Of a DNA stretch of 64,000 bases, positions 16,115-53,808 are shown piece after piece (the stretch's first letter is position 1; the number at the start of each line of letters is the position of its first letter). The notes beneath the pieces are model-generated. The model did no database searches, was not told the origin of the DNA, and worked only from the letters and a program-made list of their open reading frames with translations. The stretch lies in contig CBDCRW010000005.1 in NCBI GenBank assembly GCA_965221125.1, positions 640,001 to 704,000 on the forward strand. The letters run 5' to 3'. The translations under genes were made by a program, and so were the position numbers. This DNA is from Alphaproteobacteria bacterium (GTDB lineage Bacteria > Pseudomonadota > Alphaproteobacteria > UBA828).

Positions 16115-17014
16115 CTACTCGGCTTCGATCAACGAGACCTCTGCCCGGCGATTGCGGCCGTCGGCCACGTTGTCGCTGGTCTTGGCGATCGGCTCGGATT
16201 CGCCGAGGCCCTCTGCGTGGATCACGAAGCGCCCGGCCCCGTTCTCGATGAGGTAGCTCGCCACCGAGAGCGCACGCTGCTCCGAGAGCTTCATGTTGTA
16301 CGCGTCAGGCCCGGCCCGGTCGGTGTGGCCGCGGATGAGGATCTTGTAGGGCCTCATCTCCGTCGCGGTCGCCGCCGCTTCGTCCAGCGTCTGCATCGCG
16401 GCGCCCGAGAGATCCGAGCTGTCGAACTCGAAGAACACCACGTAGTAGGTGACGTAGCTGGGCTCGGGCTCAGGCTCGGGCTCAGGCTCGGGCGGCGGCG
16501 GAGGCCGCATCGCCACCTCGGCGGCAACCACCGAGCCGTAGAACGCGTTGCGGCATTCGGCGATGTCGTCGGGCTGGTGGCCTTCCTCCTGCTCCTGCAC
16601 CCAGCAGTCGAAGCTGAGCTGCGCGTGGGCTGCGGAGATGGGCGCCTTGCCCTTGCCGCTCCCGACCAGCATGGCCATGAGCCTGTTTCTCGCTTTCGCA
16701 AGCTCTTCCACCGCGTCGGCTGGAATCCGGCGCTCCTCCAGGGCGGTCGGCCGCACGTCGTCTCCCCTGGCCGCGACGGCCGCCTTTGCCGCGAAGTAGT
16801 CGGAATCCCGGTAGTCGTTCTCTCCAAGCTCGTTCGCGGAGAGCTCGATATAACCCGCATAGAGCTGCTGGTTGAACTCCGATCCCTGGGGATCGAGGCC
16901 CTGGACGCCTTCGAGCGCGACACCGCCGCACGCGCCGAGCATCGCGGCGATACCCGCGACCGCTGCGAGGCGAAGCCCGGTCGAAGAGACCTTGGTTCCC
17001 TTGAGCATTCTCAT
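16115..17014 (-). CDS. OmpA-family lipoprotein
   Basis: Lipobox LGAC, Pro/Glu linker PPPPPEPEPEPEPEP, FFEFDS, GHTDRAG..YN..LS..RA, NRRAEV. Confidence 0.9.
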   Translation of the reverse strand: MRMLKGTKVSSTGLRLAAVAGIAAMLGACGGVALEGVQGLDPQGSEFNQQLYAGYIELSANELGENDYRDSDYFAAKAAVAARGDDVRPTALEERRIPADAVEELAKARNRLMAMLVGSGKGKAPISAAHAQLSFDCWVQEQEEGHQPDDIAECRNAFYGSVVAAEVAMRPPPPPEPEPEPEPEPSYVTYYVVFFEFDSSDLSGAAMQTLDEAAATATEMRPYKILIRGHTDRAGPDAYNMKLSEQRALSVASYLIENGAGRFVIHAEGLGESEPIAKTSDNVADGRNRRAEVSLIEAE

Positions 17015-17114
17015 TCGTTGCCTCCCGTGCTGTCACTCGGACTATAGCGCGATCCACCGCACCGCATAAAGCACGATGACAGGTGAATTTGGGCATTTTG
17101 AGGCGGACGGAACC

Positions 17115-38249: not shown

Positions 38250-38426
38250 CAGTCAGGGGGATACTTGCGTTTCGGGAGTTTCGACAGACTTTGCCGAGGG
38301 GTCTGGGCGAGATTGGGGATCGGCAGTGCGTAGAAGCGCGACGCACTAATGCGATACGTCAGCATAACTTATAAGCGCCATAAGTGGATACTCTTGGACG
38401 CTATATGGCCATATCGAATAGGTTAT

Positions 38427-39879
38427 GGTTGTGTCCCCAGACGTGGTGTAGGAGCTCCCGCTACCCCCGGTAGCTGTGGGTAACCGGCTTGGCGCCGCGA
38501 CCGCCCTCGAGTCTGGTGGCGCCAAGCCGGTTATCCACAGCGGGGTGGCCATCGCGGTTCCGGTTTAGGGTTTGGGTGAATCCGAATCGACCCGAGCCTA
38601 AGGAGAACCACGATGACCGATGACAAGCTTACCCTGCGGACGCTGTTGGAGAAGAGCTCTGACGCCGATCTGCTGCGTGAGATGATCGCCTTCTCTGCGC
38701 AGCGCCTTATGGAGCTGGAAGTCGAGGGCCTGACCGGCGCCGAGCATGGCGCGCGGACGCCGGAGCGGATCAACCAGCGCAACGGCTACCGCGATCGGCC
38801 TTGGGAGACCCGGGCCGGCACGGTCGACCTGAAGATTCCGAAGCTCAGGAAGGGGAGCTACTTCCCCGGCTTCCTGGAGCCCCGACGGACGGCGGAGAAG
38901 GCGCTCACGGCGGTGATCCAGGAGGCCTACATCCAGGGGGTATCGACCCGCTCGGTCGACGAACTGGTTCAGGCCATGGGCATGAGCGGGATATCGAAGA
39001 GCCAGGTCTCGCGCCTTTGCGGGGAGATAGACGACAAGATCCGCAGCTTCCTCGACCGCCCGCTCGAAGGCGACTGGCCCTATCTCTGGCTGGATGCGAC
39101 TTACGTGAAGGTGCGCGAGGCCGGGCGCATCGTCCCGGTCGCGGTCACCGTGGCCGTCGCGGTCAACGACCAGGGCCGGCGCGAGATCCTCGGCATGGCG
39201 ATCGGCGCCTCCGAGGCCGAGACCTTCTGGACCGAGTTCCTGCGCTCGCTGACCAGGCGCGGCCTGCGCGGCGTGCAGCTGGTGATCTCCGACGACCACA
39301 AGGGCCTGAAGGCCGCCACCACCCGGATCCTCGGCGCCACCTGGCAGAGATGCCGCGTCCACTTCATGCGCAACCTGCTGGCCCATGCCGGCAAGCAGGG
39401 CCGGCGCGTCGTCTCCGCCTTCGTCGCCACCGCCTTCGCCCAGGACGATGCCGAGGCCGCTGCCGCCCAGTGGCGCCTGATCGCCGACCAGCTCAGGCCC
39501 AAGGCCTCCAAGCTGGCGGCCCTCATGGACGAGGCCCAGCACGACGTCCTCGCCTACATGAGCTTCCCCAAGGAGCACCGGGTCAAGCTTCACTCGACCA
39601 ACCCGCTCGAACGCGTCAACGGCGAGATCAAGCGACGCACCAACGTCGTCGGCATCTTCCCCAACGAGGACGCCATCACCCGCCTCGTCGGCGCCGTGCT
39701 GCTCGAGCAGAACGACGAATGGACCGTCGGAAGGAGGTACATGACGCTGGAATCGATCGCTCCCCTGAGCGACAATCCCACGATCAAGCTGTCCGCTGTG
39801 GCAGCCTGAATAACCCGGCCCTACCCGCCGGATGCCGCGTAAAGCGCGACGCTCTTACACCACTCCTCGGGACACGATC
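38427..39879 (+). mobile_element. IS256-family insertion sequence with 8-bp target duplication
   Basis: 26-bp imperfect IRs GGTTGTGTCCCCAGACGTGGTGTAGG / GATCGTGTCCCGAGGAGTGGTGTAAG; direct repeat TAGGTTAT at 38419-38426 and 39880-39887. Confidence 0.95.
38613..39809 (+). CDS. IS256-family transposase
   Basis: [54 protein letters not shown]. Confidence 0.97.
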
Positions 39880-40115
39880 TAGGTTATGTCCTGTCGGGAT
39901 TCGTGCCGGCCGGTCGGTGCCGCAGGCCTGCCGAACATGGAGTGACGGGCATGAAGAATTCGCGGTGTGTGGGCGTGCGAACGGGCGGGGACTCGCTTCG
40001 CCACAGGGCCAATTTTGACGCCGGCCGGCGGGCCCGCGACGGTGTCTGCAGAGCCTTGCGGGCATCCCGCGGAACGGGATCGGCCCCAGGTTCCGCCTGA
40101 CGGAATCCGACATCG

Positions 40116-41276
40116 ATGACTTCGGAACCGAGCATGCCGGCGGGCTCTTCGATGCCGCCCGTTTTCGTCACGGGTTCGGCCGGGCATGTCGGTGCCAACC
40201 TCGTGCGCCGGCTGCTCGACGAGGGCGTGCGGGTCCGGGTGTTGTTGAGACACGAGGACAACAACGAGGGCCTGGACGGTCTCGAGGTCGAACGCGTGTT
40301 CGGCGACATTCGGAATTTTGACGACACCAGGCGAGCGCTCGCGGGCTGTCAGGGTGTCTATCACTGCGCGGCCATGATCTCGACCATCGAAGGCAACCGC
40401 GCCCATCGCCGCGACATGTTCGAGTGCAACGTTCTCGGCACCCGCAACGTGCTGCGGGCGGCGCAGGAGGCGGAGGCCGGCCGGGTGGTCGTTACCGGCT
40501 CGTTCAGCGCGGTGGGATACGACCTGGACGATCCCTCCGCTCCCAGCGACGAGACGATGCCGTTCTACCCCATGGAGCGCACGATGCCCTACGAGCGCAG
40601 CAAGTCGCTCGTCGAGCAGGAGTGCTGGCGCGCGGCGGCAACGGGACAGGACGTGGTGGTCGCGACCTGCTGCGCGGTGGTCGGCGGCGCCGATTTCCTC
40701 CCCTCGCGCCTGGGGCGAACGCTCTGCGACTACACGAACGGCAAGCTCCGCGCCTATATCGATGGCGGTTTCGAGTTCGTCGCGGCCCGCGACATCGTCG
40801 AGGGGCACGTGTTGTGCATGCGCCACGGTCGCTCGGGCGAAAAGTACATCTTCAGCACCGAGTACAAGACCATTTCCGATATCCTGGATCTCTACGAGGA
40901 GGTCTCGGGCGTCCCGCGGCCGCGCCGGCGATTTCCGACCCGCCTCATGCTCGTCTTTGCCGAGATCGCGAGCTTCTATCTCAGCCGCTTTCACCCGGAC
41001 TTCCCCCAGCGCTTCACTCCCGGCGCCATACGCCTGTTGCGAAAGTGCCGCCACGCCGACGTCTCCAAGGCGAAACGGGAGCTCGGCTATCGGCCGACCG
41101 GCCTCCGCGCCGCGGTTCAGGAGGCCTACGCGTTTCACTACGGCCGCAACGCGATCGCGAACCCGCAGGCGAAGCGCCCGCGCGAGGACACCGCGAATCA
41201 CCGCGTCGCGCGAGAAGAGGACGATCCCGTGCCGGAGCGAGGCATGCGGACGATGGCGGGCGGGGGCGCGCCATGA
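40116..41276 (+). CDS. sdmB: NAD(P)-dependent extended SDR, 3-beta-HSD/SdmB-like sterol C-4 decarboxylase/reductase
   Basis: TGSAGHVG, HCAA, YERSK; first gene of sterol operon, coupled to Rieske oxygenase. Symbol inferred from context. Confidence 0.7.
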   Translation: MTSEPSMPAGSSMPPVFVTGSAGHVGANLVRRLLDEGVRVRVLLRHEDNNEGLDGLEVERVFGDIRNFDDTRRALAGCQGVYHCAAMISTIEGNRAHRRDMFECNVLGTRNVLRAAQEAEAGRVVVTGSFSAVGYDLDDPSAPSDETMPFYPMERTMPYERSKSLVEQECWRAAATGQDVVVATCCAVVGGADFLPSRLGRTLCDYTNGKLRAYIDGGFEFVAARDIVEGHVLCMRHGRSGEKYIFSTEYKTISDILDLYEEVSGVPRPRRRFPTRLMLVFAEIASFYLSRFHPDFPQRFTPGAIRLLRKCRHADVSKAKRELGYRPTGLRAAVQEAYAFHYGRNAIANPQAKRPREDTANHRVAREEDDPVPERGMRTMAGGGAP

Positions 41277-42370
41277 GGGCGGCGCCCGACGCGCCGCCCG
41301 GCTTCGAGGATGCCGGCAACCTGCGCCAGCAGGCCCGCGCCGCGGGCATGGACCCGAATTACTGGTATCCGGTCGAGGAAGTGAGGCGGATCAAGCCGGA
41401 GACGGTGATCGAGGTCGTCTTCTGGAAGCGTTCCATCGCGCTCTTCCGGGGAAAGGACGGCAATTTCCAGGCGGTCGAGGACCGCTGCGCGCATCGCCAG
41501 CTCAAGCTCTCCATCGGCGACGTGCAGGGTTGCCGGCTCGTCTGCGCCTACCATGGCTGGGAGTACGGCGGCGACGGCCGCCCCGCCGGGGTGCCCTACG
41601 ACGACCAGGGGCGGAGCTTCCCCAACCTTGCGCTCAGGACCTACCCGGTGAAGGTCCGCTACGGCCTGGTCTGGCTCTTCCCGGGAGATCCGGAGCAGGC
41701 GGAGGTGCGCCGGATCCCCGACATTCCCGAGCTCGAGGGACCCGGCCGCTGGGCCTGCGTGCCGCTCTGCTTCACCTGGTCGGCCCACCACTCGATGGTG
41801 ATCGACAATGTGAGCGACTTCACCCACGCCCATCTGCACCGCCGCTACCGGCCCTTCGACGGCGCCACGCTCACCCGCTGCGAGACCGTCGGCGACGACG
41901 TGCACCTCGCCTACGACACGAGCGTCGGGCGCGGGCGCATCTCCGGACTCTTCGTCGATCACGACCGGATCGACACCAATTGCATGGAGCTTTGCTACGA
42001 GTACCCCTACCAGTGGTCGAACACCGATGACGCGATCAAGCACTGGCTCTTCGTGCTGCCGGTCGACGAGCGCACGACCCGCGTGTTCTTCCTGTTCTAC
42101 TTCAAGTCGCTGAAGATTCCCCTGCTGCCGCTGCGCATTCCCCGCCCCGCCATGAACGCGGTCTTGAGGATCTCCAACCGCCTGCTCATCGCCCCTCTGC
42201 TCTCCCAGGACCAGTTCGCGCTGGAGGCGGAGCAGCAGGGATACGAGGAGCACTGGGACGCCCGCCCCGTCGAGTTCAACCCGGTGGTCAGGGCCTTTCA
42301 GAAGGTGACCGTGCGCAAGTGGCGGGAGCATCTCGCGCGCGAAGCGGAGAACGGCGATGCCGCCGCCTGA
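41273..42370 (+). CDS. sdmA: Rieske non-heme iron oxygenase, SdmA-like sterol C-4 methyl oxidase
   Basis: CAHR...CAYHGW Rieske ligands, DNVSDFTHAHLH mononuclear Fe motif; context in sterol operon. Symbol inferred from context. Confidence 0.75.
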   Translation: MRAAPDAPPGFEDAGNLRQQARAAGMDPNYWYPVEEVRRIKPETVIEVVFWKRSIALFRGKDGNFQAVEDRCAHRQLKLSIGDVQGCRLVCAYHGWEYGGDGRPAGVPYDDQGRSFPNLALRTYPVKVRYGLVWLFPGDPEQAEVRRIPDIPELEGPGRWACVPLCFTWSAHHSMVIDNVSDFTHAHLHRRYRPFDGATLTRCETVGDDVHLAYDTSVGRGRISGLFVDHDRIDTNCMELCYEYPYQWSNTDDAIKHWLFVLPVDERTTRVFFLFYFKSLKIPLLPLRIPRPAMNAVLRISNRLLIAPLLSQDQFALEAEQQGYEEHWDARPVEFNPVVRAFQKVTVRKWREHLAREAENGDAAA

Positions 42371-43457
42371 AGCGCTCGACCTCTCGTCGGCGCTCTCCTG
42401 CGGGACCCTGCTCGAGGCGGCGGCGATGGTGCTGGGGTTCATCGCCCTCCTCTTCGTGATGTCGCTGGTCCTGCCGGGTCGTCGCGTCACGGGCCCCGAT
42501 GCCGACGGAAACGAGCGCGTCTACAAGCTCAACGGCCTCTCCCTCTATCTGATCGTCATGATTGCGGCGTGTGGCGCGCAGGCCTCCGGCATTCTCTCCC
42601 TTTCGGTGCTGCATACCCACATTCTCGCCCTCTTCGTCGTGGCGAACGGATTCGCGTTCGCGCTCTCCGGCTGGCTCTACCTGCGCGGCGTGCGAAAGCC
42701 TCATGCATCGCCCCGGTCCTGGCGGGACTTCTTCTACGGCGTGGACGCCGCTCCGGCCTGGTTGGGGCTGGATCTGAAGCTCTTCAGCTATTGCCCCTCG
42801 CTCATCGGCCTCGCCCTCTTCAACGCATCGTTTGCCGCCGTGCAGTACGAGACCTACGGCGAGCTGACCCTGGGGATGATGCTCTACCAAGTCTTCACCT
42901 TCCTCTACGTGCTCAACTACTTCCAGTTCGAGCAGGGGATGATCCACACCTGGGACATCCTTCGCGAGCGCTTCGGGTGGATGCTGGTCTGGGGCGACTA
43001 CGTGCTGGTGCCCTTCTTCTACTGTCTCCCCGGCTGGTGGCTGGTTCACGCACCGGAGCCGCTGTCTCCGGCCGCCGCCGGCGGGATCGTCGTGCTCTTC
43101 GTTTTCGGCTTCTGGCTCTTTCGCGGGTCGAACCAGCAAAAGCACCGCTTCAAGCGCAATCCCGACGCCAGGATCTGGGGCAAGCCGGCCCGGACCCTGG
43201 ACGGGCGCCTGCTGGTCTCCGGATTCTGGGGCATCGGACGGCATCTCAACTATACCGGCGAGATCTGCGTCTATTTCTCGTTCGCCCTCACCACCGGGTT
43301 TAGCTCCTGGGCTCCCTTCCTGTTGCCGGTATGGCTGGCGGGCCTGCTGTGGCACCGCTCGGGACGCGACGAGCGCCGCTGCCGCGCCAAGTACGGCGCG
43401 CTGTGGGAGCGCTATACCCAGCGGGCGCGCTTCGCGATGCTGCCGTTCATCCATTGA
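42357..43457 (+). CDS. ERG4/ERG24-family sterol reductase (probably Delta14-reductase)
   Basis: YKLNG, TWDILRERFGWMLVWGD..VPFFY, LLVSGFWGIGRHLNYTGE, RDERRCRAKYG. Confidence 0.9.
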   Translation: MPPPEALDLSSALSCGTLLEAAAMVLGFIALLFVMSLVLPGRRVTGPDADGNERVYKLNGLSLYLIVMIAACGAQASGILSLSVLHTHILALFVVANGFAFALSGWLYLRGVRKPHASPRSWRDFFYGVDAAPAWLGLDLKLFSYCPSLIGLALFNASFAAVQYETYGELTLGMMLYQVFTFLYVLNYFQFEQGMIHTWDILRERFGWMLVWGDYVLVPFFYCLPGWWLVHAPEPLSPAAAGGIVVLFVFGFWLFRGSNQQKHRFKRNPDARIWGKPARTLDGRLLVSGFWGIGRHLNYTGEICVYFSFALTTGFSSWAPFLLPVWLAGLLWHRSGRDERRCRAKYGALWERYTQRARFAMLPFIH

Positions 43458-43465
43458 GGCCGGCG

Positions 43466-44875
43466 ATGGCAAACCGAATTCACAGTCTGGATGCGCCGCG
43501 CTCGGCTCGGTTCCGGCCGCGCTCGGAGAACGCCGCTCCCATGCTCGCGGGCGGGTGGCCGTTGCTCGGCCATCTGCCGGAATTCCAGAGGGATCCGGTC
43601 GCCATGTTGAGCCGCGGCTGGCGCGAGCATGGCGCGCTCTTCCGCTTCCGGCTCGGGACCCGCGCTTTCGTTCTCTTCGCCGGGCCCGAAGCCCACGACT
43701 TCTATTTCAGGGCACCCGAGGAACAGCTGAACGCCAAGGCCGTCTACCGCTTCACCGTGCCCATCTTCGGACGCGGCGTGGCCTACGACACCTCCCCGGA
43801 GATCATGTCGGAGCAGCTGGGCTTTCTCTTTCCGGCGCTCCGCGAGGCGGCCATGCGCAGGTTCGCCCTCGTCATGTTCGACGAGGCGCGGCAGTTCGCC
43901 GACTCCCTGGGCAAGGAAGGGGAAATCGATCTGCCGCAGGCGATGAACGAGCTCACGGTCAAGATCGCCGGCCGCTGCCTGATCGGACAGGAAGTCCGCG
44001 ATCGGGTGGACGCCGGCTTTGCCGAGATCTACCGCGACCTGCAGAAGGGCATTAACACCCTGGGATTTTTCCTCCCTAGGCTTCCCGTCGCAGCGCATCG
44101 AAAGCGCGACAAGGCCCGGCGACGGGTGGCGGAGCTCTTCGGCGGGATCATGGCCGCGCGCCGGGATGCCGGGGCCAGCCCCGACGACTTCATGCAGACG
44201 CTCATGAACGCCCGCTACAAGAGCGGCCGCGCCCTCAGCGACGACGAGATCACGGGGATCCTGCTGACGGTGCTCTTCGCAGGCCAGCACACCAGCGCGG
44301 TGCTCGCGACCTGGATCGGCCTGGAGCTGCTCAGGGCGCCGGCGTACCTGGCACGGGCGAGAGACGAGGTGCGGGAGGTTTACCGCGAAGCAGGGTCCGT
44401 GAGCATCGACAGCCTCCAGCGCCAGCCGGCCCTGGAGAACGCCGTCCGCGAATGCGAGCGGCTGCACCCGCCGCTGATATTGCTGATCCGGAAGGTGCTC
44501 GAGCCCCTGCGCTACGGAGACCGCGTCGTGCCCGCCGGCACCATGGCGATGGTGTCGCCGGCGGTCTCTCACCGCCTGCCCCACATCTTCGAGGACCCGG
44601 AGCGCTTCTTTCCCGACCGCTTCGCCGCTCCGGCGTGCGAGGACAAGCAGCACCACTACGCCCTGATCGGCTTCGGCGGCGGCAAGCACGCGTGCATGGG
44701 CAAGAACTTCGCGTACATGCAGCTCAAGGCGATCTGGACCGTTCTGCTCGATCGCTTCGATTTCTCTCTCAGCGGCGCGTTTCCCCGTCCGAACTACGGC
44801 AGCTGGGTGACCGGGCCTGAGAGACCGTGCCGCGTCCGCTACCGTCGCCGCGCGCAGCCGAGCGCATTCTCATGA
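43466..44875 (+). CDS. cyp51: Sterol 14-alpha-demethylase cytochrome P450 (CYP51)
   Basis: VYRFTVPIFGRGVAYD (SRS1), FAGQHTS I-helix signature, ECER, heme motif FGGGKHACMG; start could alternatively be ATG 43541. Confidence 0.92.
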   Translation: MANRIHSLDAPRSARFRPRSENAAPMLAGGWPLLGHLPEFQRDPVAMLSRGWREHGALFRFRLGTRAFVLFAGPEAHDFYFRAPEEQLNAKAVYRFTVPIFGRGVAYDTSPEIMSEQLGFLFPALREAAMRRFALVMFDEARQFADSLGKEGEIDLPQAMNELTVKIAGRCLIGQEVRDRVDAGFAEIYRDLQKGINTLGFFLPRLPVAAHRKRDKARRRVAELFGGIMAARRDAGASPDDFMQTLMNARYKSGRALSDDEITGILLTVLFAGQHTSAVLATWIGLELLRAPAYLARARDEVREVYREAGSVSIDSLQRQPALENAVRECERLHPPLILLIRKVLEPLRYGDRVVPAGTMAMVSPAVSHRLPHIFEDPERFFPDRFAAPACEDKQHHYALIGFGGGKHACMGKNFAYMQLKAIWTVLLDRFDFSLSGAFPRPNYGSWVTGPERPCRVRYRRRAQPSAFS

Positions 44876-47800
44876 GCGCCGCCGCGTCGCGGCGTTACGA
44901 CGTGGCCATCGTCGGCGCGGGGCCGGTGGGGAGCCTGTGCGCGCTCGCTCACGCGCGGAAGGGCGCCCGGGTGGCCCTGCTGGAAGCGAATCCCAGGGCG
45001 TCCGAGCGCCTGGCGGGCGAATGGCTGCATCCGCCCGGCGTCCAGATACTGCGGCACTTCGGGATCGGGCCGGACACCCTGCCCCGCAGCACCGCGGGCA
45101 GGGGCTTCGTCGTGTTTCCCGATGACGGCTCGAAGCCGATCGTGCTTCCCTACATGAACGGCTCGCGGGGTCTGGCCTGCGACCATGCGGTGCTCGTCTC
45201 GAAGCTGCGGGACGCCATCGGGAACGAGCCGGACGTGGATTTCTTCGCCCCCGCGCGGGTCGGTGAAGTCGAAGACGGCCGGCTGGCCTTCACCAGCAAC
45301 GGCACGGTTCACACCGTCCGCGCCGCACGGATTATCGGCGCCGACGGCCGGGCCTCGATCGTGCGCCAGTCGCTCGGCCTGTCGACGGACCCGATGCTCT
45401 GCTCGCGCATGCTGGGGGTCACGGTGAGCGGTGTGAGCCTGCCCTTCGAAGGTCATGGGCATGTGCTGCTCGGCGGCCCAGGGCCGATACTCGCCTACGG
45501 CGTGGCAAACGATTGCGTCCGGATCATCGCCGATGTCCCGCTGGACCGCTGGTCACGCCAGGACCGGGTCGGCTTCCTGACGGAATCCTATGCCGCCCTG
45601 CTGCCGGAGACTCTCAGGCCGGCGTTCGTCGAGGCGCTGCGAGCGGGGCAATTCGACGTTGCAGCCAATCAGCTGCGGCCGCGCGTCACTTACGGCACCC
45701 CGCTTCGCGTGTTGATCGGCGACGCGGCCGGGCACTACCACCCCATGACGGCGGTCGGCATGACCCTCGGATTCGGCGATGCGCTCGCCCTCGCCGAGGG
45801 CGGGAGCTTTCGCGACTTCGCCGCCAGGCGCTTCCGGGCGACCCATGTGCCGGAGTTGCTCGCCATGGGGCTCTACGAGGTCTTCGCCGATCGTCGGGCC
45901 GAGGCGGTGGCGATGAAACACGCGGTCTACCGGGGGCTGCGAACGAGCTCCGATTACCGGGAGCGGACCTCGCGGATACTTGCCTGCGAAGATCGATCCG
46001 CGCTCGGGATGGGTCTCGCGTTTTTCGGAACGGCAATCCGGGCGGCGGCCGTGGAGATTCCGCTCTCCCTCCGCCAGTTCGCTCCGCGCCGGGGTCTGAG
46101 GATCTTCGGTGCGCTCGTCGTTCGTCTCTGGTGGCTCCTGCGTTGGGGTCTGCAGCTGCGCCGGTCAAGACGCCGGGGCGGGCGGAACGACGAGCGGGCC
46201 CTGGACAGCCTGGCCCGAGCACTCCTGCACTCCATGCCGTCGGGGCTCGACGCGGCCGGATCCGGCCGGCCGAAGGACTCCGAGGCGCCCGATGCCGGTC
46301 CGGCACTGGCGAGCGCGACGGCGCAGCTCCTCAGCCTCCAGGGCGAGGACGGCGGCTGGGAAGGCGAGATGGTCTGGTGCCCCATGCTCACCGCGCAATA
46401 CGTGCTGCTGCACCACATCATCGGCCGGCCGCTCGAGCCCGGCCGGCGCCGGCGCGTGCTGCGCTCCTTCGAACGGACCCGTCTCGAAGCAGGCTCCTGG
46501 GGCCTGCACGAGCACGCGTCGCCCCACCTCTTCGTCACCGCCATGGTCTACGTCGCGGCGAGGCTGCTCGGGGTCGAGCGTGACGATCCCCTTGTCGAGC
46601 CGGCCCGGCGCTTCATACAGGCCGAGGGGATCGTGGCCATTCCGAGCTGGGGAAAGTTCTGGCTGGCGCTGCTCAACCTCTACGACTGGCGCGGGGTCAA
46701 CGCCGTCCTGCCGGAGCTGTGGAGCCTGCCGCGGCGCATACCCTTGCATCCCTCCAACTGGTACTGCCACACGCGGCTCATCTACATGGCGATGGCGGCG
46801 GTTTACGCGCACCGCTTCCAGGCACCCGTCACGCCCCTGATCGCCGCGCTGCGGGAGGAGCTGTTCCCGCAAGGATTTGCGGAGGTAGATTTCTCCGCCG
46901 CCCGCAGTTGCCTGCGGGAGGCCGACCTCTACGCGCGGCCGAGCGTGTGGCTCAAGGCTGGATACAGGATTGCGCGCGTGTTCGATCGGCTCCACGGCAA
47001 GCGCCTGCGTGCCCGATGCACGGAGGCGATCGTCCGGCAGATCAGATGGGAGCTGCAGACCACCAGCCATACGAGCATCTCTCCGGTGAGCGGCCTTCTC
47101 AACATGCTTGCCCTGTGGCTGCGCGATCCGGACGACGCCGATCTGCACCAGGCGCTCGCGAAGCTGGACGGCTGGTTCTGGGAGGACGAGGAAGAGGGTG
47201 CGCGCGTCGTCGGCGCGAGAAGCGCCTCGTGGGACAGCGGCTTCGCGTTGCAGGCGCTGGCGGCGGCGCCCGCGTTCGACGGGGTAGAGGACGCGCTGCA
47301 GCGCGGCGCCGACTTCCTGCTCAGGCAACAGATTGCCGCCAGCTTCGACGGGTTTCGCGAGGCCTATCGAACCGACCCCAGGGGCGGCTGGTGCTTTGCC
47401 GGGGGATGGCATGGCTGGCCGGTGAGCGACTGCACTGCGGAGGCGGTGCTCGGACTTCACGCTGCCGGTCGCGGCGCTCTGCACGCGAGCGCGTTGCGCG
47501 ATGCGGTCGGGTTCATGCTGCGCTGCCAGAACCGCGATGGCGGATTCGGCAGCTACGAGGCGCGACGCGCGGCTTTCGGTCTGGAGTGGATGAATCCGGC
47601 CGAGATGTTCGGCGATTCGATGACCGAGCAATCCTATGTCGAGTGCACCGTGTCCTGCCTCGCGGCGCTCGCCGCCTGCAGGGAGGACGTTCCGCAAATC
47701 GTGGATGGAGCCGTGACGGGCGCGATCGCCCGGGCCGATGCCTGGCTTCGCCGAACCCAGGCAAGCGACGGGTCGTGGCGCGGCGTGTGGGGGGTTCAGT

Positions 47801-48282
47801 TCATTTACGGAACCCTCTTCGGAATCAGGGGTCTTCTGTCGGCCGGAGCCGGCCCCGACGATCCGGCGCTTCGCTCGGCCTGCCGCTGGCTGCTGGAGCG
47901 CCAGCGGGAAGACGGCGGATGGGGCGAGCACCACAGCGGCTGCCTGACCGGCCGATACGTGCCGCACGAGGAAAGCCAGGTCGTCCAGACCGCGTGGGCC
48001 TTGATCGCACTCCTCGAGGCGAACGAATCGAACTGGACTGCGATTTCGCGGGGCGCCCGCTTCCTGCTCGACGCGCAGGACGCCGACGGGACGTGGCCCA
48101 GGCAGGACATGGCTGGCGTGTTCTTCCGAACGGCGCTCCTGGATTACGTGCTGTACCGACGGTATTTCCCGCTGCACGCGCTCGCTCTCTACGAGCGCCG
48201 CCGCCGCGAGCGGCTGGGTCTCGCCGCCGCCCCGCGCGCCGCCGACGCGCCTGCGGCTCCGTCCGAGGCGGCTGCGGCCTGA
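44872..48282 (+). CDS. osc: Squalene epoxidase - oxidosqualene cyclase fusion protein
   Basis: N-half: IVGAGPVG, RLAGEWLHPPG, GADG, IGDAAGHYHPMTAVGMT. C-half: QW repeats (QGEDGGW, QNRDGGF, QASDGSW, QREDGGWGE, QDADGTW), WYCHTR, GWPVSDCTAE; continuous frame. Confidence 0.93.
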   Translation: MSAAASRRYDVAIVGAGPVGSLCALAHARKGARVALLEANPRASERLAGEWLHPPGVQILRHFGIGPDTLPRSTAGRGFVVFPDDGSKPIVLPYMNGSRGLACDHAVLVSKLRDAIGNEPDVDFFAPARVGEVEDGRLAFTSNGTVHTVRAARIIGADGRASIVRQSLGLSTDPMLCSRMLGVTVSGVSLPFEGHGHVLLGGPGPILAYGVANDCVRIIADVPLDRWSRQDRVGFLTESYAALLPETLRPAFVEALRAGQFDVAANQLRPRVTYGTPLRVLIGDAAGHYHPMTAVGMTLGFGDALALAEGGSFRDFAARRFRATHVPELLAMGLYEVFADRRAEAVAMKHAVYRGLRTSSDYRERTSRILACEDRSALGMGLAFFGTAIRAAAVEIPLSLRQFAPRRGLRIFGALVVRLWWLLRWGLQLRRSRRRGGRNDERALDSLARALLHSMPSGLDAAGSGRPKDSEAPDAGPALASATAQLLSLQGEDGGWEGEMVWCPMLTAQYVLLHHIIGRPLEPGRRRRVLRSFERTRLEAGSWGLHEHASPHLFVTAMVYVAARLLGVERDDPLVEPARRFIQAEGIVAIPSWGKFWLALLNLYDWRGVNAVLPELWSLPRRIPLHPSNWYCHTRLIYMAMAAVYAHRFQAPVTPLIAALREELFPQGFAEVDFSAARSCLREADLYARPSVWLKAGYRIARVFDRLHGKRLRARCTEAIVRQIRWELQTTSHTSISPVSGLLNMLALWLRDPDDADLHQALAKLDGWFWEDEEEGARVVGARSASWDSGFALQALAAAPAFDGVEDALQRGADFLLRQQIAASFDGFREAYRTDPRGGWCFAGGWHGWPVSDCTAEAVLGLHAAGRGALHASALRDAVGFMLRCQNRDGGFGSYEARRAAFGLEWMNPAEMFGDSMTEQSYVECTVSCLAALAACREDVPQIVDGAVTGAIARADAWLRRTQASDGSWRGVWGVQFIYGTLFGIRGLLSAGAGPDDPALRSACRWLLERQREDGGWGEHHSGCLTGRYVPHEESQVVQTAWALIALLEANESNWTAISRGARFLLDAQDADGTWPRQDMAGVFFRTALLDYVLYRRYFPLHALALYERRRRERLGLAAAPRAADAPAAPSEAAAA

Positions 48283-48348
48283 TTCCCGGTCCCGAGCGTC
48301 GGCGTTCCCGCAGAGGCGCGCGCGGCCGACAGATAACGCCCGCTTCGA

Positions 48349-49380
48349 TCAGTCGTGCGGGGGGCCGGGCTTGCGGGCCAGGAAAAAGAACATCGGCGTG
48401 AAGACGCCGGACCTGCCGCCGTCCACCAGCGCGTCCGCCGCCGCGTTCAGGAGCGTGCTGACCGCGCGGGAGCCCTCGGGAAAGAGCCGAAGCCGTTCGC
48501 CCACCCGCAAGGTCAGGTTGGTCAGCGCGCGGCCGACGGGCGTGCGCGGAAGACTCGAAAGACTGAGGTCACGACCCTGCAAGGCACGATACCAGGGCAT
48601 CTCCGGGTCCGCTTCGGGCGCGCGGTCGCGCGCGTCCAGGAGCTCGAATCCCGCCGTCCGCAACGCGGCGGAAACCTGCGACGTGGAAGCGATGTCCGGC
48701 AGCGCATCGCCGACCATGATGTCGTTCCTGATTCGCCGATGCTCCGCGTTGGCTGAATCGAATTTCTCGGTGAGGCACCAGTCGTAGCCCGCGAAGCAGG
48801 CTCCGGGACGAAGCACACGCAGGATCTCCCGGAACGCCGCTGTCTTGTCGGGCGCGTGGGGCATGGACTCGATCGCAATGGCAGCATCGTAGCGGTCGTC
48901 TTCCTCGGGAATCTGCATGTAGTCGCCGTGAATGAAGCGGCATAACGACCGGACATCCCGGGTGTGAAGTTTGGCGCGCTCGATCTGGTAGGCGTTGTTG
49001 TTGATTCCGACAAAGCTGGCCCCGGAATGGCGGGCCAGATTGCCCGTCGGCCCGCCGACACCGCAGCCGACATCGAGCACGTGCATACCCGGCTTCAGGG
49101 ACAGCCTTTCGGCCAGAAAATGCTGGTGCCGGAGCAGCGACGCCTTGAAGCTCTCGCCCCGCCTTCGGGGAGCGAAGTGAAAGGACTGGCCCCAACCGAA
49201 CTCATAGAAATCGGTCACCAGATCGTAGTAGCGATTCACGAACGAGCGATAATGCTCCTTCCTGCGCTCCAGGCCGGCATCGTAGATTTCGGTGTATCCG
49301 TCGACCGTGGACCTTACTTCGTCCGGGGCGAGATTCGCGAGGGTGCGCGCTTTCGATCGTGCGCCGGAGGTGCGATTCAT
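48349..49380 (-). CDS. smt: Sterol C-24 methyltransferase (SMT/ERG6-like)
   Basis: YYDLVTDFYEFGWGQSFHFA (SMT region I), LDVGCGVGGP, GINNNAYQ, IESMPHAP, GYDW, LVDGGRSGVFTPMFFFLARKP. Confidence 0.92.
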   Translation of the reverse strand: MNRTSGARSKARTLANLAPDEVRSTVDGYTEIYDAGLERRKEHYRSFVNRYYDLVTDFYEFGWGQSFHFAPRRRGESFKASLLRHQHFLAERLSLKPGMHVLDVGCGVGGPTGNLARHSGASFVGINNNAYQIERAKLHTRDVRSLCRFIHGDYMQIPEEDDRYDAAIAIESMPHAPDKTAAFREILRVLRPGACFAGYDWCLTEKFDSANAEHRRIRNDIMVGDALPDIASTSQVSAALRTAGFELLDARDRAPEADPEMPWYRALQGRDLSLSSLPRTPVGRALTNLTLRVGERLRLFPEGSRAVSTLLNAAADALVDGGRSGVFTPMFFFLARKPGPPHD

Positions 49381-49545
49381 CCGTGCATCTTGCCAGAGCC
49401 GCACGTCGTCCCCAAGACCGGCGTGTTGCGGGTTCCAGCGCTTCGCTTCATGTCACCGATACGGACCGCGTCCGGGGTGCCGCCCTCTCCGCGGGGTACA
49501 ATGCGGCAAGCCTCAGCACCGGCGTATCCGAGAGGAGCGAATCGC

Positions 49546-50280
49546 ATGATCGAAAGGCAAGCGGACCGAGGCCCATGCGAATCCGGCACTCACCGGACCT
49601 GGCTGGCAATCCCGCCGGTGGTGTTCGCCGGGTCGATCATCGCGATTCTGACAGCGGCCGGCATCGGTGCGCGCTACGGCGTTCGTGGCGATTTCGACGT
49701 CATTCATGCACTCCTGATGCTCTTCTTTTCGATCAACCTGTTGATATGCCACTGGGAGGTGTGCCTCTTCTTCAGGCGGGATTATGTCGAGAAGCGTGCC
49801 GAATACTGGCGTGAGCGCCGAGACGAAACAGGCCGGACATCGGCCGTCGAATTCCTCACCGGAAGGGTTCCGTTGACGCGAATATTGTCGTCGACGGTAT
49901 GGGCCGACGTCTGGGCTACCTATTCCCAGTTCGACGGTTCCTACGCCGACCGGCGCACGTACGGCTACAACGTGGATATCGCCAACGGCTTCGTAACGCC
50001 GGTGCCGACGCTGATCCTCTTCGCCGCCTTCACCGTCGATTTCCTGCCCGCCCTCGTCGCCGGCATCGTCGGGGCGATGCTGTTCTGGCAGCTGACCTAC
50101 GCGACCTCGGTCTATTGGGTCAGCTTTTTCGTGGCCAAGCGGCAAAGACGCATCGGCCGCAAGGATATGTACATCTACATCTGGGGACTGAATTGCCCGT
50201 GGGTGCTGTTCGCCCTGCTGGGCCTCTACGTCTCCATTCGCCTGATTCTTGACGGCAACTACAGCGTTCTCGGCCATTGA
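49546..50280 (+). CDS. Membrane protein, EBP/EXPERA-like (candidate sterol Delta8-Delta7 isomerase)
   Basis: About 5 TM segments; HWE, VWATYSQFDGSYAD and GLNCPW resemble EBP W.EY..DSRY and N..W; RBS gaggag. Confidence 0.55.
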   Translation: MIERQADRGPCESGTHRTWLAIPPVVFAGSIIAILTAAGIGARYGVRGDFDVIHALLMLFFSINLLICHWEVCLFFRRDYVEKRAEYWRERRDETGRTSAVEFLTGRVPLTRILSSTVWADVWATYSQFDGSYADRRTYGYNVDIANGFVTPVPTLILFAAFTVDFLPALVAGIVGAMLFWQLTYATSVYWVSFFVAKRQRRIGRKDMYIYIWGLNCPWVLFALLGLYVSIRLILDGNYSVLGH

Positions 50281-50430
50281 TCGCGGCTTCCCCCGGAACA
50301 ACGCCGATCGAGGGTAATCCTTCGGTCATAGAGTGATGGCATGTTGGGCGTTGACATCAACGACCGCGCCTGGAGACGCGCTCGGTAGGAATTGCTGGTA
50401 ACGAATTTCGCCATGCGCTAGCGTGAGTGC

Positions 50431-52716
50431 ATGGCGATTCGCGACGCGTCTGCCGCGGCACACCTCTCGCTGGTCGAGGGGTCTGACGGTCCATGGTCTT
50501 TTCCTCCTGATAATCCGTCCTCCGAAGAGCCGGACTGGCGATCCCTGTCCGAGCGGGCGCACGCCCGTGCGGAGAGCGAGGGGGCGCGGGCAGACGCGGC
50601 TGAAGCGCGCATCCAGGAACTGCTCGGCGATATCCGTCGGCTCCGCGCTTCTTTGCGCAAAACGGGAGCAGCCGGAAGTACGGGGGAGCCGCTGCCGAGG
50701 GGTGCCCGTGGAGCGCACAAAGCGCCGCGAAGATTGCGACGGAACGACACCATCGGCTCGCTGCATGTGGAGAACGCCGAACTGCGCGAGGAGGCCACAA
50801 CGCTGCGCAAGGCGGCGGGTGCGGCACAGACGTCGCTCTCCAGGAAAGACGCCCGGCTGCTCAAGGCCCGGGAACGTTCGCAGGCCCAAAGGAGCACGAT
50901 CGAGGAGCTGCGCCGGCAGGTCCGTTCCCTGGAAAGGCAGGTCGCCCGGCAGAGCCGCGACCTGGAGGAGGCGGAAAGCCGCAGGCAGACTATCCGTGAT
51001 CTCTCCCGCGAGAACGCGGAACTCCGTGGAGCACTCAGGGATTGGCGCGACCAGGAGGCCACCATCGAATGGTTCGACGGCCGCGTCAGCGAGCTGGAAT
51101 GTGCCCTGGACGAGGCCGCAGACGAGAGGCGGTGGATGGAGGCCGATCTTGCCGATCGCCCTCTGTTGCCCGTGGCCTTCGAACGACTGCGCACCCAGGA
51201 GAAGACGATCCAATCGCTCACCGAGAAGATCCAGTCCCTCTCCGAGAAAAACGAGCGGTTGCGGGCCCGGATCACGGACCTGGAGGCGACGGTTGCCAGG
51301 CACCGTGCGAGCAGGGCCGTGCTGTCCAAGGCACTGTTCGGCAGCAAGAGCGAGCAGCAGGAGAAGCCCAGCACGGGGCGCAAGCGCGGCCAGCAGCGCG
51401 GCGCTCCCGGCCACGGCCGTACCCCGCGGCCCGGGCTCGAGGAGCGCACCGACAAGCGCAACCCGCCCAAGGACGCGCGCGCGTGCTCCTGTTGCGGCAA
51501 GCCCTATGTCGCCAACGGCGAGCACGTCTCGACCATCATCGAGATCGAGGTCAAGGCCCACAAACGCAGGATCGTCCGCCCCCGCTGGCGCCGGGGTTGC
51601 GACTGCCCGTCCTCGCCCCTGGAAGTGACGGCGCCCCCGCCGCTGCGCCTGTTCCCCAGGACACCCTACGGAACCAGCGTGTGGGCGAGCTTCCTCTACG
51701 AGCGCTACGCCTCTCTGCGGCCCCTCAGCCAGGTCTCCGCGTGGCTGTCCGGCCTCGGTCTGCCGATCGCTGCCGGCACCCTCGCCGGCAGCGTGGAGCG
51801 CTTCATTCCTGTGTTCGAGCCCGTGGCGGACGCGATCCTCGCGCACCAGAACCAACAGGCGGTCCGTCACGGCGACGAGACCGGCTGGCGTATCCAGTCG
51901 CTGCGCGAGATCGGCCGCTCCAACCGCGCGTGGCTGTGGAACTCGGTCAGCGAGGATGCGGTCTACTTCCACTGCGACCCCTCGCGCTCGGCCGAGGCCG
52001 CGAAGACGTTGTTCGGCGATACCGCCGTCGTCGTGTTCGTGGTCTGCGACCGCCTCTCCAGCTACAAGAAGATGGCGCGCGACCTCGACGGCAAGGTGAT
52101 CCTCTGCTTCTGCTGGGTCCATCAACGGCGGGACTTCATCCAATGCGCGGCCAGCCACAATCGGCTGACGGACTGGTGCCAGAGTTGGATCGAGCGCATC
52201 GCCTCGATCTACAGCCTGAACAAGGCGCGGCTGCGGCATTACGACCCCGCTCTGGAGCGCCAGACGCCACAGTTCGACGCCGCACAGAGAGAGTTGGAGA
52301 AGGCCGTCGACAAGCTGTTCGCGGACGCAAAAGCGGAACTGGCCGGCCTGCCGGCCGGCTCGCGCGAGGCCAAGCCGCTGCGCTCGCTGCTCAACCACCG
52401 CGAGGGGTTGTGCGTCTTCGTCGACAACCCGCAGGTGCCCATGGACAATAACGCTGCCGAGCGGGCGTTCAGGAAAGCGGTCATAGGACGACGCCTCAGC
52501 TTCGGATCCGACAGCGAGGACGGCGCGAAGTTCACGGCAATCATGTACTCCGTCGTCGGCACCCTCGCCATGAACGGCATCGATGTCCGGCGCTGGCTGG
52601 AGGCATGGCTGAAGACCTGCGCGAAGAATGGCGGCAAACCGCCGGACGACTTGTCGCCCTGGCTGCCGTGGTCGATGAGCGAGAAGCGAAGGCGCAAGTT
52701 CACGGCGCCGGGATGA
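50431..52716 (+). CDS. IS66-family transposase with extended N-terminal coiled coil
   Basis: LFGSKSE, GAPGHGR, CSCCG zinc finger, HGDETGW, VCDRLSSY, CWVHQRRDF, DNNAAERAFR. Confidence 0.93.
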   Translation: MAIRDASAAAHLSLVEGSDGPWSFPPDNPSSEEPDWRSLSERAHARAESEGARADAAEARIQELLGDIRRLRASLRKTGAAGSTGEPLPRGARGAHKAPRRLRRNDTIGSLHVENAELREEATTLRKAAGAAQTSLSRKDARLLKARERSQAQRSTIEELRRQVRSLERQVARQSRDLEEAESRRQTIRDLSRENAELRGALRDWRDQEATIEWFDGRVSELECALDEAADERRWMEADLADRPLLPVAFERLRTQEKTIQSLTEKIQSLSEKNERLRARITDLEATVARHRASRAVLSKALFGSKSEQQEKPSTGRKRGQQRGAPGHGRTPRPGLEERTDKRNPPKDARACSCCGKPYVANGEHVSTIIEIEVKAHKRRIVRPRWRRGCDCPSSPLEVTAPPPLRLFPRTPYGTSVWASFLYERYASLRPLSQVSAWLSGLGLPIAAGTLAGSVERFIPVFEPVADAILAHQNQQAVRHGDETGWRIQSLREIGRSNRAWLWNSVSEDAVYFHCDPSRSAEAAKTLFGDTAVVVFVVCDRLSSYKKMARDLDGKVILCFCWVHQRRDFIQCAASHNRLTDWCQSWIERIASIYSLNKARLRHYDPALERQTPQFDAAQRELEKAVDKLFADAKAELAGLPAGSREAKPLRSLLNHREGLCVFVDNPQVPMDNNAAERAFRKAVIGRRLSFGSDSEDGAKFTAIMYSVVGTLAMNGIDVRRWLEAWLKTCAKNGGKPPDDLSPWLPWSMSEKRRRKFTAPG

Positions 52717-53594
52717 CCGGCGCCATCGAGTGCCGCTACTACGGGCGCGACTTCACTTCGGAAGAGATGGCGCTGCTGCGCGCGCTCATCGCCGCCGACC
52801 CGCCCCTCAACCGCCATGCCCTGTCCAAGGAGTTCTGCCGGCGCATCGGCTGGGTCAAGCCTGACGGCGGGCTCAAGGACATGATGGCCAGGGTCACCAT
52901 GCTGGCCATGCACAAGGACGGTCTGATCACCCTGCCGCCGCCGAGATGGAAACCGGGTCCGCCAAAGCCCATCGTCTTCGGGCCTGACACCGAGCCGCCG
53001 CTCTTCCCCGCCCCCACTACCCTCGATGACGTTCGCCCGCTCGAGATGCGCACCGTCGTGCGCAACACCCGGGAGGGCAAGCTCTGGAACGAGTTCGTCG
53101 CCCGCTACCACTACCTCGGCTTCAAGACCCTGGTCGGTGCCCAGATGCGCTACGCCGTCCACGGCCGCGACGGCTGGCCGCTCGCCATGCTCGGCTTCTC
53201 CACCGCCGCCTGGAAGCTCGCGCCGCGCGACAGCTTCATCGGGTGGACGCCCGAGAAGCGCGAGAAAAACCTGCCGCTGGTGGTCGACAACCCGCGTTTC
53301 CTCATCCTGCCCTGGATCAAGATCCCAAACCTCGGCTCGCACATCCTCGCCATCGTCCGCCGCCGCCTGCCCGAGGATTGGATCGAGCGCTACAACACCA
53401 CGCCCGTGCTCGTCGAGACCTTCGTCCAGAGGCCGCCCTACACCGGCGCCGTCTACAGGGCCTCGGGATGGATCCATGTCGGAACCACACAGGGGCGCGG
53501 CCGCTATGACAGATACTCCCAAAGGGCCCTGCCGCAGAAAGACATCTGGCTCCGGCCCCTCCGAAAAGACTGGAAACGAGCACTCAACCGATGA
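52713..53594 (+). CDS. DUF4338 (DruA-like) domain protein
   Basis: RYYGRDF, RYHYLG, RDSFIGW, DNPRFLILPW, NLGSHIL, VETFV, GAVYRASGW; ATGA overlap with transposase. Confidence 0.85.
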   Translation: MTGAIECRYYGRDFTSEEMALLRALIAADPPLNRHALSKEFCRRIGWVKPDGGLKDMMARVTMLAMHKDGLITLPPPRWKPGPPKPIVFGPDTEPPLFPAPTTLDDVRPLEMRTVVRNTREGKLWNEFVARYHYLGFKTLVGAQMRYAVHGRDGWPLAMLGFSTAAWKLAPRDSFIGWTPEKREKNLPLVVDNPRFLILPWIKIPNLGSHILAIVRRRLPEDWIERYNTTPVLVETFVQRPPYTGAVYRASGWIHVGTTQGRGRYDRYSQRALPQKDIWLRPLRKDWKRALNR

Positions 53595-53808
53595 CATCTC
53601 GGTCCTCATCACGCACCATCACCCGGTGACCGAAGGGATTCGATCGAGGCGACCGGCCTCGTCATGCCTTCAGCTCGTTCAGCCGCTCGAACGGCCATGG
53701 CGCAAGCCCTGACCTTGGCGAGAAATGCGGTCTAACACCCTGTATTACAATCCTTATTCAGGAGGACCCTGCAACGCTGTGCCACAGTCCGATCGCTTGT
53801 GGTCACGG

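Follow-up and report, generated by a model that had tools for sequence, protein, structure and literature searches.

An alphaproteobacterial sterol cassette carries a probable sterol C-24 methyltransferase of a sponge- and coral-associated lineage, predicted to form C28 and probably C29 rather than C30 sterols

Introduction

Steranes with alkylated side chains, and 24-isopropylcholestane in particular, serve as fossil evidence of early animals, and bacterial sterol methyltransferases (SMTs) complicate this use. How many carbons can a given bacterial SMT add to the sterol side chain, and does it act on sterols that its own host cell makes? These questions are raised by a gene at positions 48349..49380 (minus strand) of a 64,000-nt stretch of an alphaproteobacterial genome (assembly GCA_965221125.1, contig CBDCRW010000005.1, positions 640,001 to 704,000), referred to below as the window. 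A first-pass annotation had described the gene as a bacterial sterol C-24 methyltransferase with variant motifs that is linked to an oxidosqualene cyclase (OSC) gene and might give non-standard or multiple alkylations. Following this up computationally, we consider it likely that the gene encodes a functional sterol C-24 methyltransferase dependent on S-adenosylmethionine (SAM), belonging to a lineage associated with sponges and corals and yielding C28 and probably C29, but not C30, sterols. The cluster layout, the lineage and its horizontal gene transfer (HGT) among sponge symbionts (PMC9531527), as well as assayed close relatives (PMC10070321), have already been published; new here are the precise limits of the cassette next to insertion sequences, the assignment of an EBP-like neighbour by its fold, allele counts at yeast position 249 and the product prediction.

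Results

The SMT coding sequence (P0001; 48349..49380, minus strand) specifies 343 aa and contains no internal stop, so that the integrity of the gene can be read directly from the DNA. The open reading frame (ORF) extends to 49404, and the ATG at 49380 was preferred over the alternative GTG at 49404 because most of the 120 listed relatives share the length of 343 aa and align with the query from its first residue onwards. The protein joins a class I SAM methyltransferase domain (Methyltransf_11, PF08241; E 2.9e-18, 66.7 bits, above the cut-off, with several class I methyltransferase models matching) to a C-terminal Sterol_MT_C domain (PF08498; residues 277-338, 48367..48552; E 4.7e-21, 75.1 bits against a cut-off of 21.7), which is the domain combination of the SMT family. 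These matches go far beyond what chance would give. The gene is a bona fide SMT homologue within a bacterial sterol cluster, in agreement with the first annotation, and the motifs YEFGWGQSFHF, IESMPHAP and YDW were all found as that annotation had described them.

All four signature regions could be located on the minus strand. Region I, which binds the sterol, is YEFGWGQSFHF (residues 59-69, 49174..49206; yeast Y81 corresponds to Y59 and yeast position 83 to F61), and Region II, which binds SAM, is LDVGCGVGGP (residues 102-111, 49048..49077). Region III reads IAIESMPHAP (residues 168-177, 48850..48879; yeast Y192 is Ile168 and E195 is E171) and includes the octapeptide IESMPHAP (residues 170-177, 48850..48873), while Region IV reads GACFAGYDW (residues 193-201, 48778..48804, yeast 217-225) and ends in YDW (residues 199-201, 48778..48786), with Asp at yeast position 224. 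The consensus elements GWGxxFHF of Region I and DxGxGxxGP of Region II are present, as are E195 and G217. The window protein has every one of the 25 residues that are given as conserved among functional SMTs (bioRxiv 10.64898/2025.12.19.695621), and the same 25 are invariant or nearly so in a 72-sequence family alignment (A2) that reaches down to 32% identity, the D, G, G, G and P of Region II being invariant throughout. An AlphaFold model of the protein (pLDDT 91.1, pTM 0.89) shows a Rossmann-like core of strands and helices; a PDB sequence search found no solved SMT, the best match being MitM (E 2.5e-21). The genome (4.58 Mb in 7 contigs, 92% complete) holds this single SMT copy.

The motif variants were then placed among relatives, using 212 lineage rows at at least 65% identity (120 clustered proteins plus locus translations) from a full alignment of 259 rows that includes the window and 15 duplicates. 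Region III of the window protein carries Ser-Met-Pro where the SMT family usually has Ala-Thr-Cys, and this form is the rule in the lineage: IESMPHAP occurs in 167/212 rows, YEF in 202/212 and Gly-Ala-Cys at yeast 217-219 in 162/212. Yeast position 192 is Phe in 130 rows, Ile in 61 and Tyr in 2, and Region IV ends in YEW in 149/212 rows and in YDW in 57/212. Among the 46 rows below 65% identity, Tyr192 was found in 41 and IESMPHAP in 2. In 52 distant members of the SMT family, Y192 (43), A196 (37), T197 (31), C198 (39) and E224 (38) prevail, and D224, the YDW form, is present in 12. The full combination of the window (I168, IESMPHAP, YDW and D225) recurs in 17 of the 212 lineage rows. In these alignments Ser-Met-Pro and a residue other than Tyr at position 192 thus appear as a signature of the lineage and YDW as a common minority form across SMTs, and neither IESMPHAP nor YDW appears peculiar to the window gene. 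The annotated view that variant motifs set this gene apart is therefore not supported in that form. The broader premise, that these regions shape the product, has literature behind it, as the preprint summarises Regions I, III and IV as influencing the number of methylations (bioRxiv 10.64898/2025.12.19.695621), and the idea that the motifs of this gene signal unusual chemistry holds only in part. A separate idea, in which the Ser-Met-Pro form of Region III steers deprotonation towards delta-25(27) olefins, was dropped as a main claim because an assayed Aplysina enzyme has isofucosterol and fucosterol as its main C29 products.

Related enzymes have been assayed. PMC10070321 reports methylation of desmosterol by 8 of 10 SMTs from sponge symbionts and by 12 of 14 from the environment, with 24-isopropyl sterols formed by three enzymes; a figure legend of the preprint ascribes a functional SMT to each of the Aplysina, Petrosia and Theonella clusters, and the authors' reply in the peer-review file of PMC10070321 reports that the Petrosia and Theonella cluster SMTs gave no 24-isopropyl sterols. 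Assayed members of the window lineage are LXNJ01014139 (locus L081; 87% identical to the window protein), LXNJ01003202 (L084; 71%) and the SMT of locus L013 (78%), which is taken to be the enzyme named 'Nitrospira sp., coral reef 1 of 2', partly by its gene order beside sdmB.

According to the preprint, Gly at yeast position 249 is necessary for making 24-isopropyl (C30) sterols and is carried by all propylating SMTs known to its authors (bioRxiv 10.64898/2025.12.19.695621). The corresponding codon of the window gene (48706..48708, minus strand) encodes Asp225; both anchors flanking position 249, G217 (residue 193) and G268 (residue 244), give the same offset of 24 to the yeast numbering. When position 249 of a Chlamydiae SMT was changed to 11 other residues, none of the variants made C30 sterols, and those with Ala, Ser, Asn or Thr kept C29 formation; in the Aplysina symbiont enzyme, G249D (its G225D) lost C30 and kept C29 products (same preprint). 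The other feature associated with propylation, Phe at yeast 81 and/or 83, is present in the window protein through F61, yeast 81 being Y59, and is described in the same source as neither necessary nor sufficient. Because Asp rather than Gly occupies position 249, the window enzyme is predicted to lack a 24-isopropyl product. We expect it to carry out one methylation, probably two, and not three, which would lead to C28 and probably C29 but not C30 sterols. From the proposal of multiple alkylation to C28, C29 or C30, the first two products thus remain plausible, and C30 is unlikely given Asp225 and the missing 24-isopropyl sterols in the sponge cluster to which L081 belongs.

Across the 212 lineage rows, yeast position 249 is Asp in 141, Asn in 58, Thr in 8, Ser in 3 and Gly in 2. 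Gly is carried by P0055 and P0097, whose identities to the window protein are 82% and 80% and to each other 78%; these two alleles sit nearest different subgroups, and P0097 also has Phe at yeast 81. Paralogues add to this diversity. Many related loci hold two or three SMT copies (for example L052, 1162-4348; L036, 8678-12105; and L041), and in L007, L013, L056 and L078 a second SMT lies about 2-5 kb upstream of the main one. One paralogue type has Gly at yeast 249 (L052_2240, L036_11146, L068_9404 and L125), and in another Met-Val replaces the Tyr-Glu of Region I.

Searches for relatives returned 153 SMTs on genome contigs, the best 80 of which are 68-93% identical to the window protein. Their hosts are metagenome-assembled genomes (MAGs) labelled as Alphaproteobacteria, Nitrospirales, Gammaproteobacteria, Gemmatimonadota, Acidobacteria, Binatia, Thermodesulfobacteriota, Dehalococcoidia, Rhodothermales and others, including the sponge-named taxa Poriferihabitaceae and Porisulfidus. 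A metagenome search yielded ten loci with SMTs 71-87% identical to that of the window, all remaining full-length matches being at 57% or below; nine of the ten lie on contigs prefixed LXNJ, LXNI or JGIcombinedJ30088, prefixes used for Petrosia, Sarcotragus and Aplysina sponge metagenomes (PMC10070321; bioRxiv 10.64898/2025.12.19.695621), and the tenth on Ga0209544. In a FastTree phylogeny of 246 rows, which carries no named eukaryotic SMTs, the window protein falls into a 96-row set with support 100 that spans nine phylum labels; bacterial SMTs are reported to form clades separate from those of sponges (PMC10070321). Pairwise comparison with nine relatives gave dN/dS values of 0.11-0.22, pointing to strong purifying selection on the gene. 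Synonymous divergence (dS) from a Nitrospirales copy was only 0.77 and from a Dehalococcoidia copy 1.47, and such low values across phyla fit a recent transfer of the SMT between them. With the 96-row set, they also place the window among the clusters with near-identical copies in distant phyla.

Short contigs of a sponge-metagenome RNA library (X1) match the SMT at 48982-49331, and other cassette genes, at about 90-97% identity. The pieces are small and diverged (share 0.08), come from relatives and may include carried-over DNA, and the parts of the cassette that they leave uncovered carry no meaning; they give at most a weak hint of expression and do not amount to proof that the window gene is transcribed.

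The SMT lies in a cluster with the gene order sdmB-sdmA-ERG24-CYP51-SE/OSC on the plus strand, the SMT on the minus strand and a gene for an EBP-fold protein on the plus strand, where SE/OSC denotes a fused squalene epoxidase (SE) and OSC. An SdmB-like short-chain dehydrogenase/reductase (40116..41276), putatively acting in C-4 demethylation, has SdmB as its best NCBIfam match (E 7.9e-86) and is followed by an SdmA-like Rieske 4-methylsterol monooxygenase (41330..42370, start approximate; SdmA, E 1.2e-116), both scores lying below the equivalog cut-offs. The ERG24-type sterol C-14 reductase (42357..43457; ERG4_ERG24, E 7.5e-69) is the only copy found in the genome, and the adjoining CYP51-type P450 (43331..44875, start codon not refined; p450, E 1.8e-58), a putative sterol 14-demethylase, has relatives 63-93% identical to it. 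The fused epoxidase-cyclase is encoded by a single ORF of 1151 aa (44827..48282), with SE and FAD_binding_3 domains in residues 24-408 and both cyclase domains in 495-1123; among NCBIfam models it matches 2,3-oxidosqualene cyclase best (E 3.3e-226; 752.5 bits, short of the 851-bit cut-off). In all 50 of the 50 related loci with both parts, these adjoin each other in one reading frame. Supplementary Data 1 of PMC10070321 shows the fusion implicitly, as ERG1 and ERG7 match one and the same gene there, and a full-text literature search found no paper describing an SE-OSC fusion by its title or the opening of its abstract. The SMT converges on this gene, its stop lying 66 nt from the end of SE/OSC, so the annotated physical linkage to an OSC is real. 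On another contig the genome has two adjacent SQS_PSY genes. It also encodes a squalene-hopene-type cyclase (contig 3, 300217-301170; SQHop_cyclase_C, E 5.4e-132), and the bacterium may make hopanoids as well as sterols.

On its other side, the SMT faces a gene for a 244-aa EBP-fold (EXPERA) membrane protein, a putative sterol C-8 isomerase (49546..50280, plus strand). The two genes are head-to-head with 165 nt between them, the plus-strand position of the EBP-like gene being one detail on which the first annotation needs correction. No Pfam model matched the protein; EBP (PF05241) gave no match at E values up to 10 in the protein search or up to 1 in the genome search, and an Atlas feature match led to a cluster in which 20% of members carry PF05241. 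Its predicted structure (pLDDT 83.3), when aligned with VIA-align, matches human EBP (6oht_A) with Z 15.4 and an rmsd of 2.5 Å over 178 of 206 residues, followed by the sigma-2 receptor (Z 10.3) and unrelated chains at 7.6 or below, and human EBP is also the top Foldseek match (E 0.036). The modelled fold therefore supports the EBP-like label. Homologues 51-89% identical were found in 32 of 136 loci, and the reading frame 49546-50280 shows no in-frame stops in those of related loci.

The cluster coincides with a 10.4-kb cassette (39891..50313), a collinear block shared with other MAGs that gives one 10.4-kb blastn alignment at 88-89% nucleotide identity with each of three loci (L002, L003 and L004). 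Its left end is abutted by an IS256-family element (38431..39875, plus strand; Transposase_mut, E 7.3e-122) with 25-nt terminal inverted repeats that are 84% complementary, and blastn shows that this element is missing from the same junction in L002. The right end is abutted by a possible IS66-family element (50308..53647, plus strand) comprising an IS66 transposase (DDE_Tnp_IS66, E 2.2e-53) and a DruA-like gene (PF14236, E 1.2e-35), whose inverted repeats are weak (32 nt, 75% complementary). In L003 a DruA-like copy 85% identical to it (16678-17461) is found at the other end of the cassette, that of sdmB, and the gene may belong to a mobile element that travels with the cassette. GC content is 0.65-0.69 across the cassette against 0.70-0.74 further out. 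These sharp edges beside insertion sequences suggest a route by which the pathway passed between phyla. In L001, whose SMT is the closest relative at 93% identity, the cassette is truncated: the equivalent of window positions 38428-43684 (the IS256 element, sdmB, sdmA, ERG24 and the start of CYP51) is lacking, and a 173-bp left flank is kept (L001 15692-15892 against window 38255-43684).

We compared layouts across 80 genome loci. Within the flanks that were fetched, four or more of the six core parts are present in 51 of them, one to three in five and none in 24. Convergence of the SMT on the cyclase, the arrangement of the window, is seen in 31 of the 51 core-bearing loci, including L048 and L050, which were assigned to this class by their blastn collinearity with the window; sharing its strand with the operon, the SMT follows the cyclase in nine and leads in five, and it sits between a split sdmBA and the remaining core in four and diverges from sdmB in two. 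The EBP-fold gene stands head-to-head with the SMT, 101-330 nt apart, in 15 of the 32 loci that have it, and in three of these (L046, L066 and L072) the locus contains no core gene. These observations partly support the proposal that the SMT joined the core operon as a separate module together with the EBP-like gene. In its favour, SMT placement varies around a fixed core, and the SMT/EBP pair recurs in 15 loci, three of them coreless; against it, the EBP-like gene is not co-oriented with the SMT, and across 51 loci the identity of the SMT to that of the window rises and falls with the mean identity of the core (Spearman 0.82), from which we conclude that the SMT mostly travelled with the core.

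Accessory genes around the cassette form a highly variable set. A Pfam scan of its flanks covered 138 of 159 ORFs from 44 of the 51 core-bearing loci and found transposase, integrase or reverse-transcriptase domains within 3.5 kb of the cassette in seven of the 44. Long ORFs joining a GPP34 domain to a cytochrome P450 flank the cassette in L014, L015, L025, L035, L043 and L054, and amine-oxidase-type FAD enzymes lie beside it in nine loci. KshA-like Rieske proteins occur in L014 and L036, and singletons include ERG2_Sigma1R (L032), FA_hydroxylase (L016) and FAD_binding_4 (L034).

Discussion

Taken together, the intact gene, its family membership and conserved residues, the purifying selection acting on it and the sterol cassette around it argue for a working SMT in the window bacterium, its activity, natural substrate and number of methylations being inferred. 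From homology and gene context, squalene could come from the two SQS_PSY genes, and the fused epoxidase-cyclase would turn it into a tetracyclic sterol; loss of the 14-methyl group would fall to CYP51 and ERG24 and C-4 demethylation to SdmA and SdmB, and the nuclear double bond would be moved by the EBP-fold protein. Methyl transfer from SAM to the delta-24 side-chain bond by the SMT would follow, giving 24-methyl or 24-methylene (C28) sterols, and a second round would probably give 24-ethyl or 24-ethylidene (C29) sterols.

Several points weigh against this account. The assay data come from relatives at 71-87% identity and not from the window protein. A sizeable minority of bacterial SMT homologues were silent in the published tests: 2/10 and 2/14 methylated neither test substrate in PMC10070321, and the same held for 6/10 in the preprint (bioRxiv 10.64898/2025.12.19.695621), where four inactive homologues had nevertheless kept the conserved residues. 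In the Chlamydiae SMT of the same preprint, G249D gave only C28 sterols and abolished C29, and Asp in the window enzyme could therefore mean a single methylation. Our yeast numbering was mapped from the published residue list and motif context, without aligning the yeast sequence itself. Lastly, a promoter scan around the SMT found no sigma-70-like site against 0.5 expected, which is uninformative, as are the three terminator-like sites found against 1.8 expected.

Could the enzyme mainly methylate sterols taken from a eukaryotic host, rather than the products of the neighbouring pathway? Such a use seems to exist elsewhere in the lineage. Among ten genomes in which the SMT has no core gene within 10 kb, five (G002, G004, G005, G006 and G009; loci L022, L031, L033, L038 and L019) lack an OSC orthologue, three having no OSC match and two only a 30-32% identical cyclase, the completeness of these genomes not being reported; they may methylate host-derived sterols, and a similar case has been discussed in the literature for a Chlamydiae MAG. 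One of these loci, L019, keeps a CYP51 (70% identical) near its SMT. For the window bacterium itself we regard such a supply as improbable, as the whole cassette lies intact beside the SMT and the identities of SMT and core co-vary across the 51 loci (rho 0.82).

We likewise see only a slim chance that the SMT is silent on common delta-24 sterols or uses another substrate or site, for example in C-26 methylation of codisterol-type sterols. The two test substrates were left unmethylated by many of the homologues assayed, the literature describes the 26-SMT as still undiscovered, and Ile168 with Ser-Met-Pro departs from the Tyr (43/52) and Ala-Thr-Cys (37, 31 and 39 of 52) of distant SMTs. However, the same Region III is present in L013, taken to be an assayed enzyme that gives a C-24 methyl product, and the window protein has all 25 conserved residues and is under strong purifying selection.

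The case for a propylating SMT, whose three successive methylations would end in 24-isopropyl (C30) sterols, draws on the propylating Aplysina enzyme, the gene for which (...11) adjoins an SE-OSC fusion gene (...12) as the window SMT does. At 42.4% identity to yeast ERG6, that enzyme lies near the assayed first copies (38.8-41.6%) and not the second copies (about 35%), its key Gly is numbered 225 like the Asp of the window protein, which also has F83, and two lineage members at 80-82% identity (P0055 and P0097) carry Gly at 249. Even so, we consider C30 formation by the window enzyme very unlikely, the least probable of the three alternatives, as it has Asp225, G249D lost C30 in both enzymes tested, 0/11 substitutions kept it, and the Petrosia and Theonella cluster SMTs of the lineage gave no 24-isopropyl sterols. 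A functional C-24 methyltransferase stopping at C28 or C29 is thus the account that we favour.

A more far-reaching idea, which we put forward tentatively and think rather more doubtful than probable, is that a natural switch of one residue, at yeast 249, determines how many carbons the side chain gains in a single SMT lineage that circulates horizontally on the mobile 10.4-kb cassette, with C30 alleles arising sporadically by point change and the window gene representing the common allele that stops at C28/C29. If the switch holds, metagenomes could be read for 24-isopropyl potential allele by allele; if the mobile-cassette reading holds, a plausible vehicle for spread across phyla would have been named. 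The window gene does not overturn current views. It adds one more complete, apparently de novo sterol pathway in a bacterium of the sponge-symbiont type, together with a concrete prediction that follows from the published residue rule and can be tested (C28/C29, not C30), and the Gly allele tied to C30 is rare in the sampled lineage (2/212 rows).

One of the closest known systems is that of Petrosia ficiformis contig LXNJ01014139 (L081). Over its 3 kb, this contig runs collinear to the window with 86% nucleotide identity, its SMT is 87% identical over 338 aa with similar Regions I and IV, and it likewise has a head-to-head EBP-like neighbour (82% identical) and an SMT converging on the OSC; it differs in reading FEIEATAHAP in Region III, YEW in Region IV and Asn at yeast 249. 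The SMT taken to be 'Nitrospira sp., coral reef 1 of 2' (L013) shares ESMPHAP with the window at 78% identity and made (epi)codisterol from desmosterol (PMC10070321), but it has CEW rather than YDW and Asn at yeast 249, and its cluster runs SMT-sdmB-sdmA-ERG24-CYP51-SE/OSC on one strand. The Aplysina aerophoba symbiont SMT JGIcombinedJ30088_1000083511 ('1 of 2', Ap_sym_SMT) stands beside an SE-OSC fusion, followed by CYP51, ERG24, sdmA and sdmB. We compared it through its published gene order, numbering (G225 = yeast 249) and ERG6 identity and not by alignment; these suggest that it belongs to the window lineage, the numbering fitting a protein of the same length. Unlike the window enzyme with Asp225, it has Gly225 and performs three methylations, ending in 24S-24-isopropylcholesta-5,25-dienol. 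ERG6 of Saccharomyces cerevisiae, which adds one carbon, has the same 25 conserved residues and, like the window enzyme, Asp at 249, the yeast residue to which G249 was mutated in the preprint; it differs by its Y192, G218 and T219, which are I168, A194 and C195 in the window protein (bioRxiv 10.64898/2025.12.19.695621).

The clusters termed CSGs in Ircinia sponge symbionts were found in 115 of 537 MAGs from 10 phyla, are under purifying selection and have gene trees indicating HGT (PMC9531527). That paper makes no mention of transposases, mobile elements or plasmids, and its passages on these clusters call the cyclase LSS/ERG7 without mention of a fusion, a feature for which the paper was not specifically searched. 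The architecture described there is that of the window: an ERG24-CYP51-LSS core, a 'DFR' and a hypothetical gene upstream on the same strand, equivalent to sdmB and sdmA, and SMT1/ERG6 on the opposite strand at the 3' end (PMC9531527), corresponding to the ERG24-CYP51-OSC core, upstream sdmB/sdmA and opposite-strand SMT that we found here.

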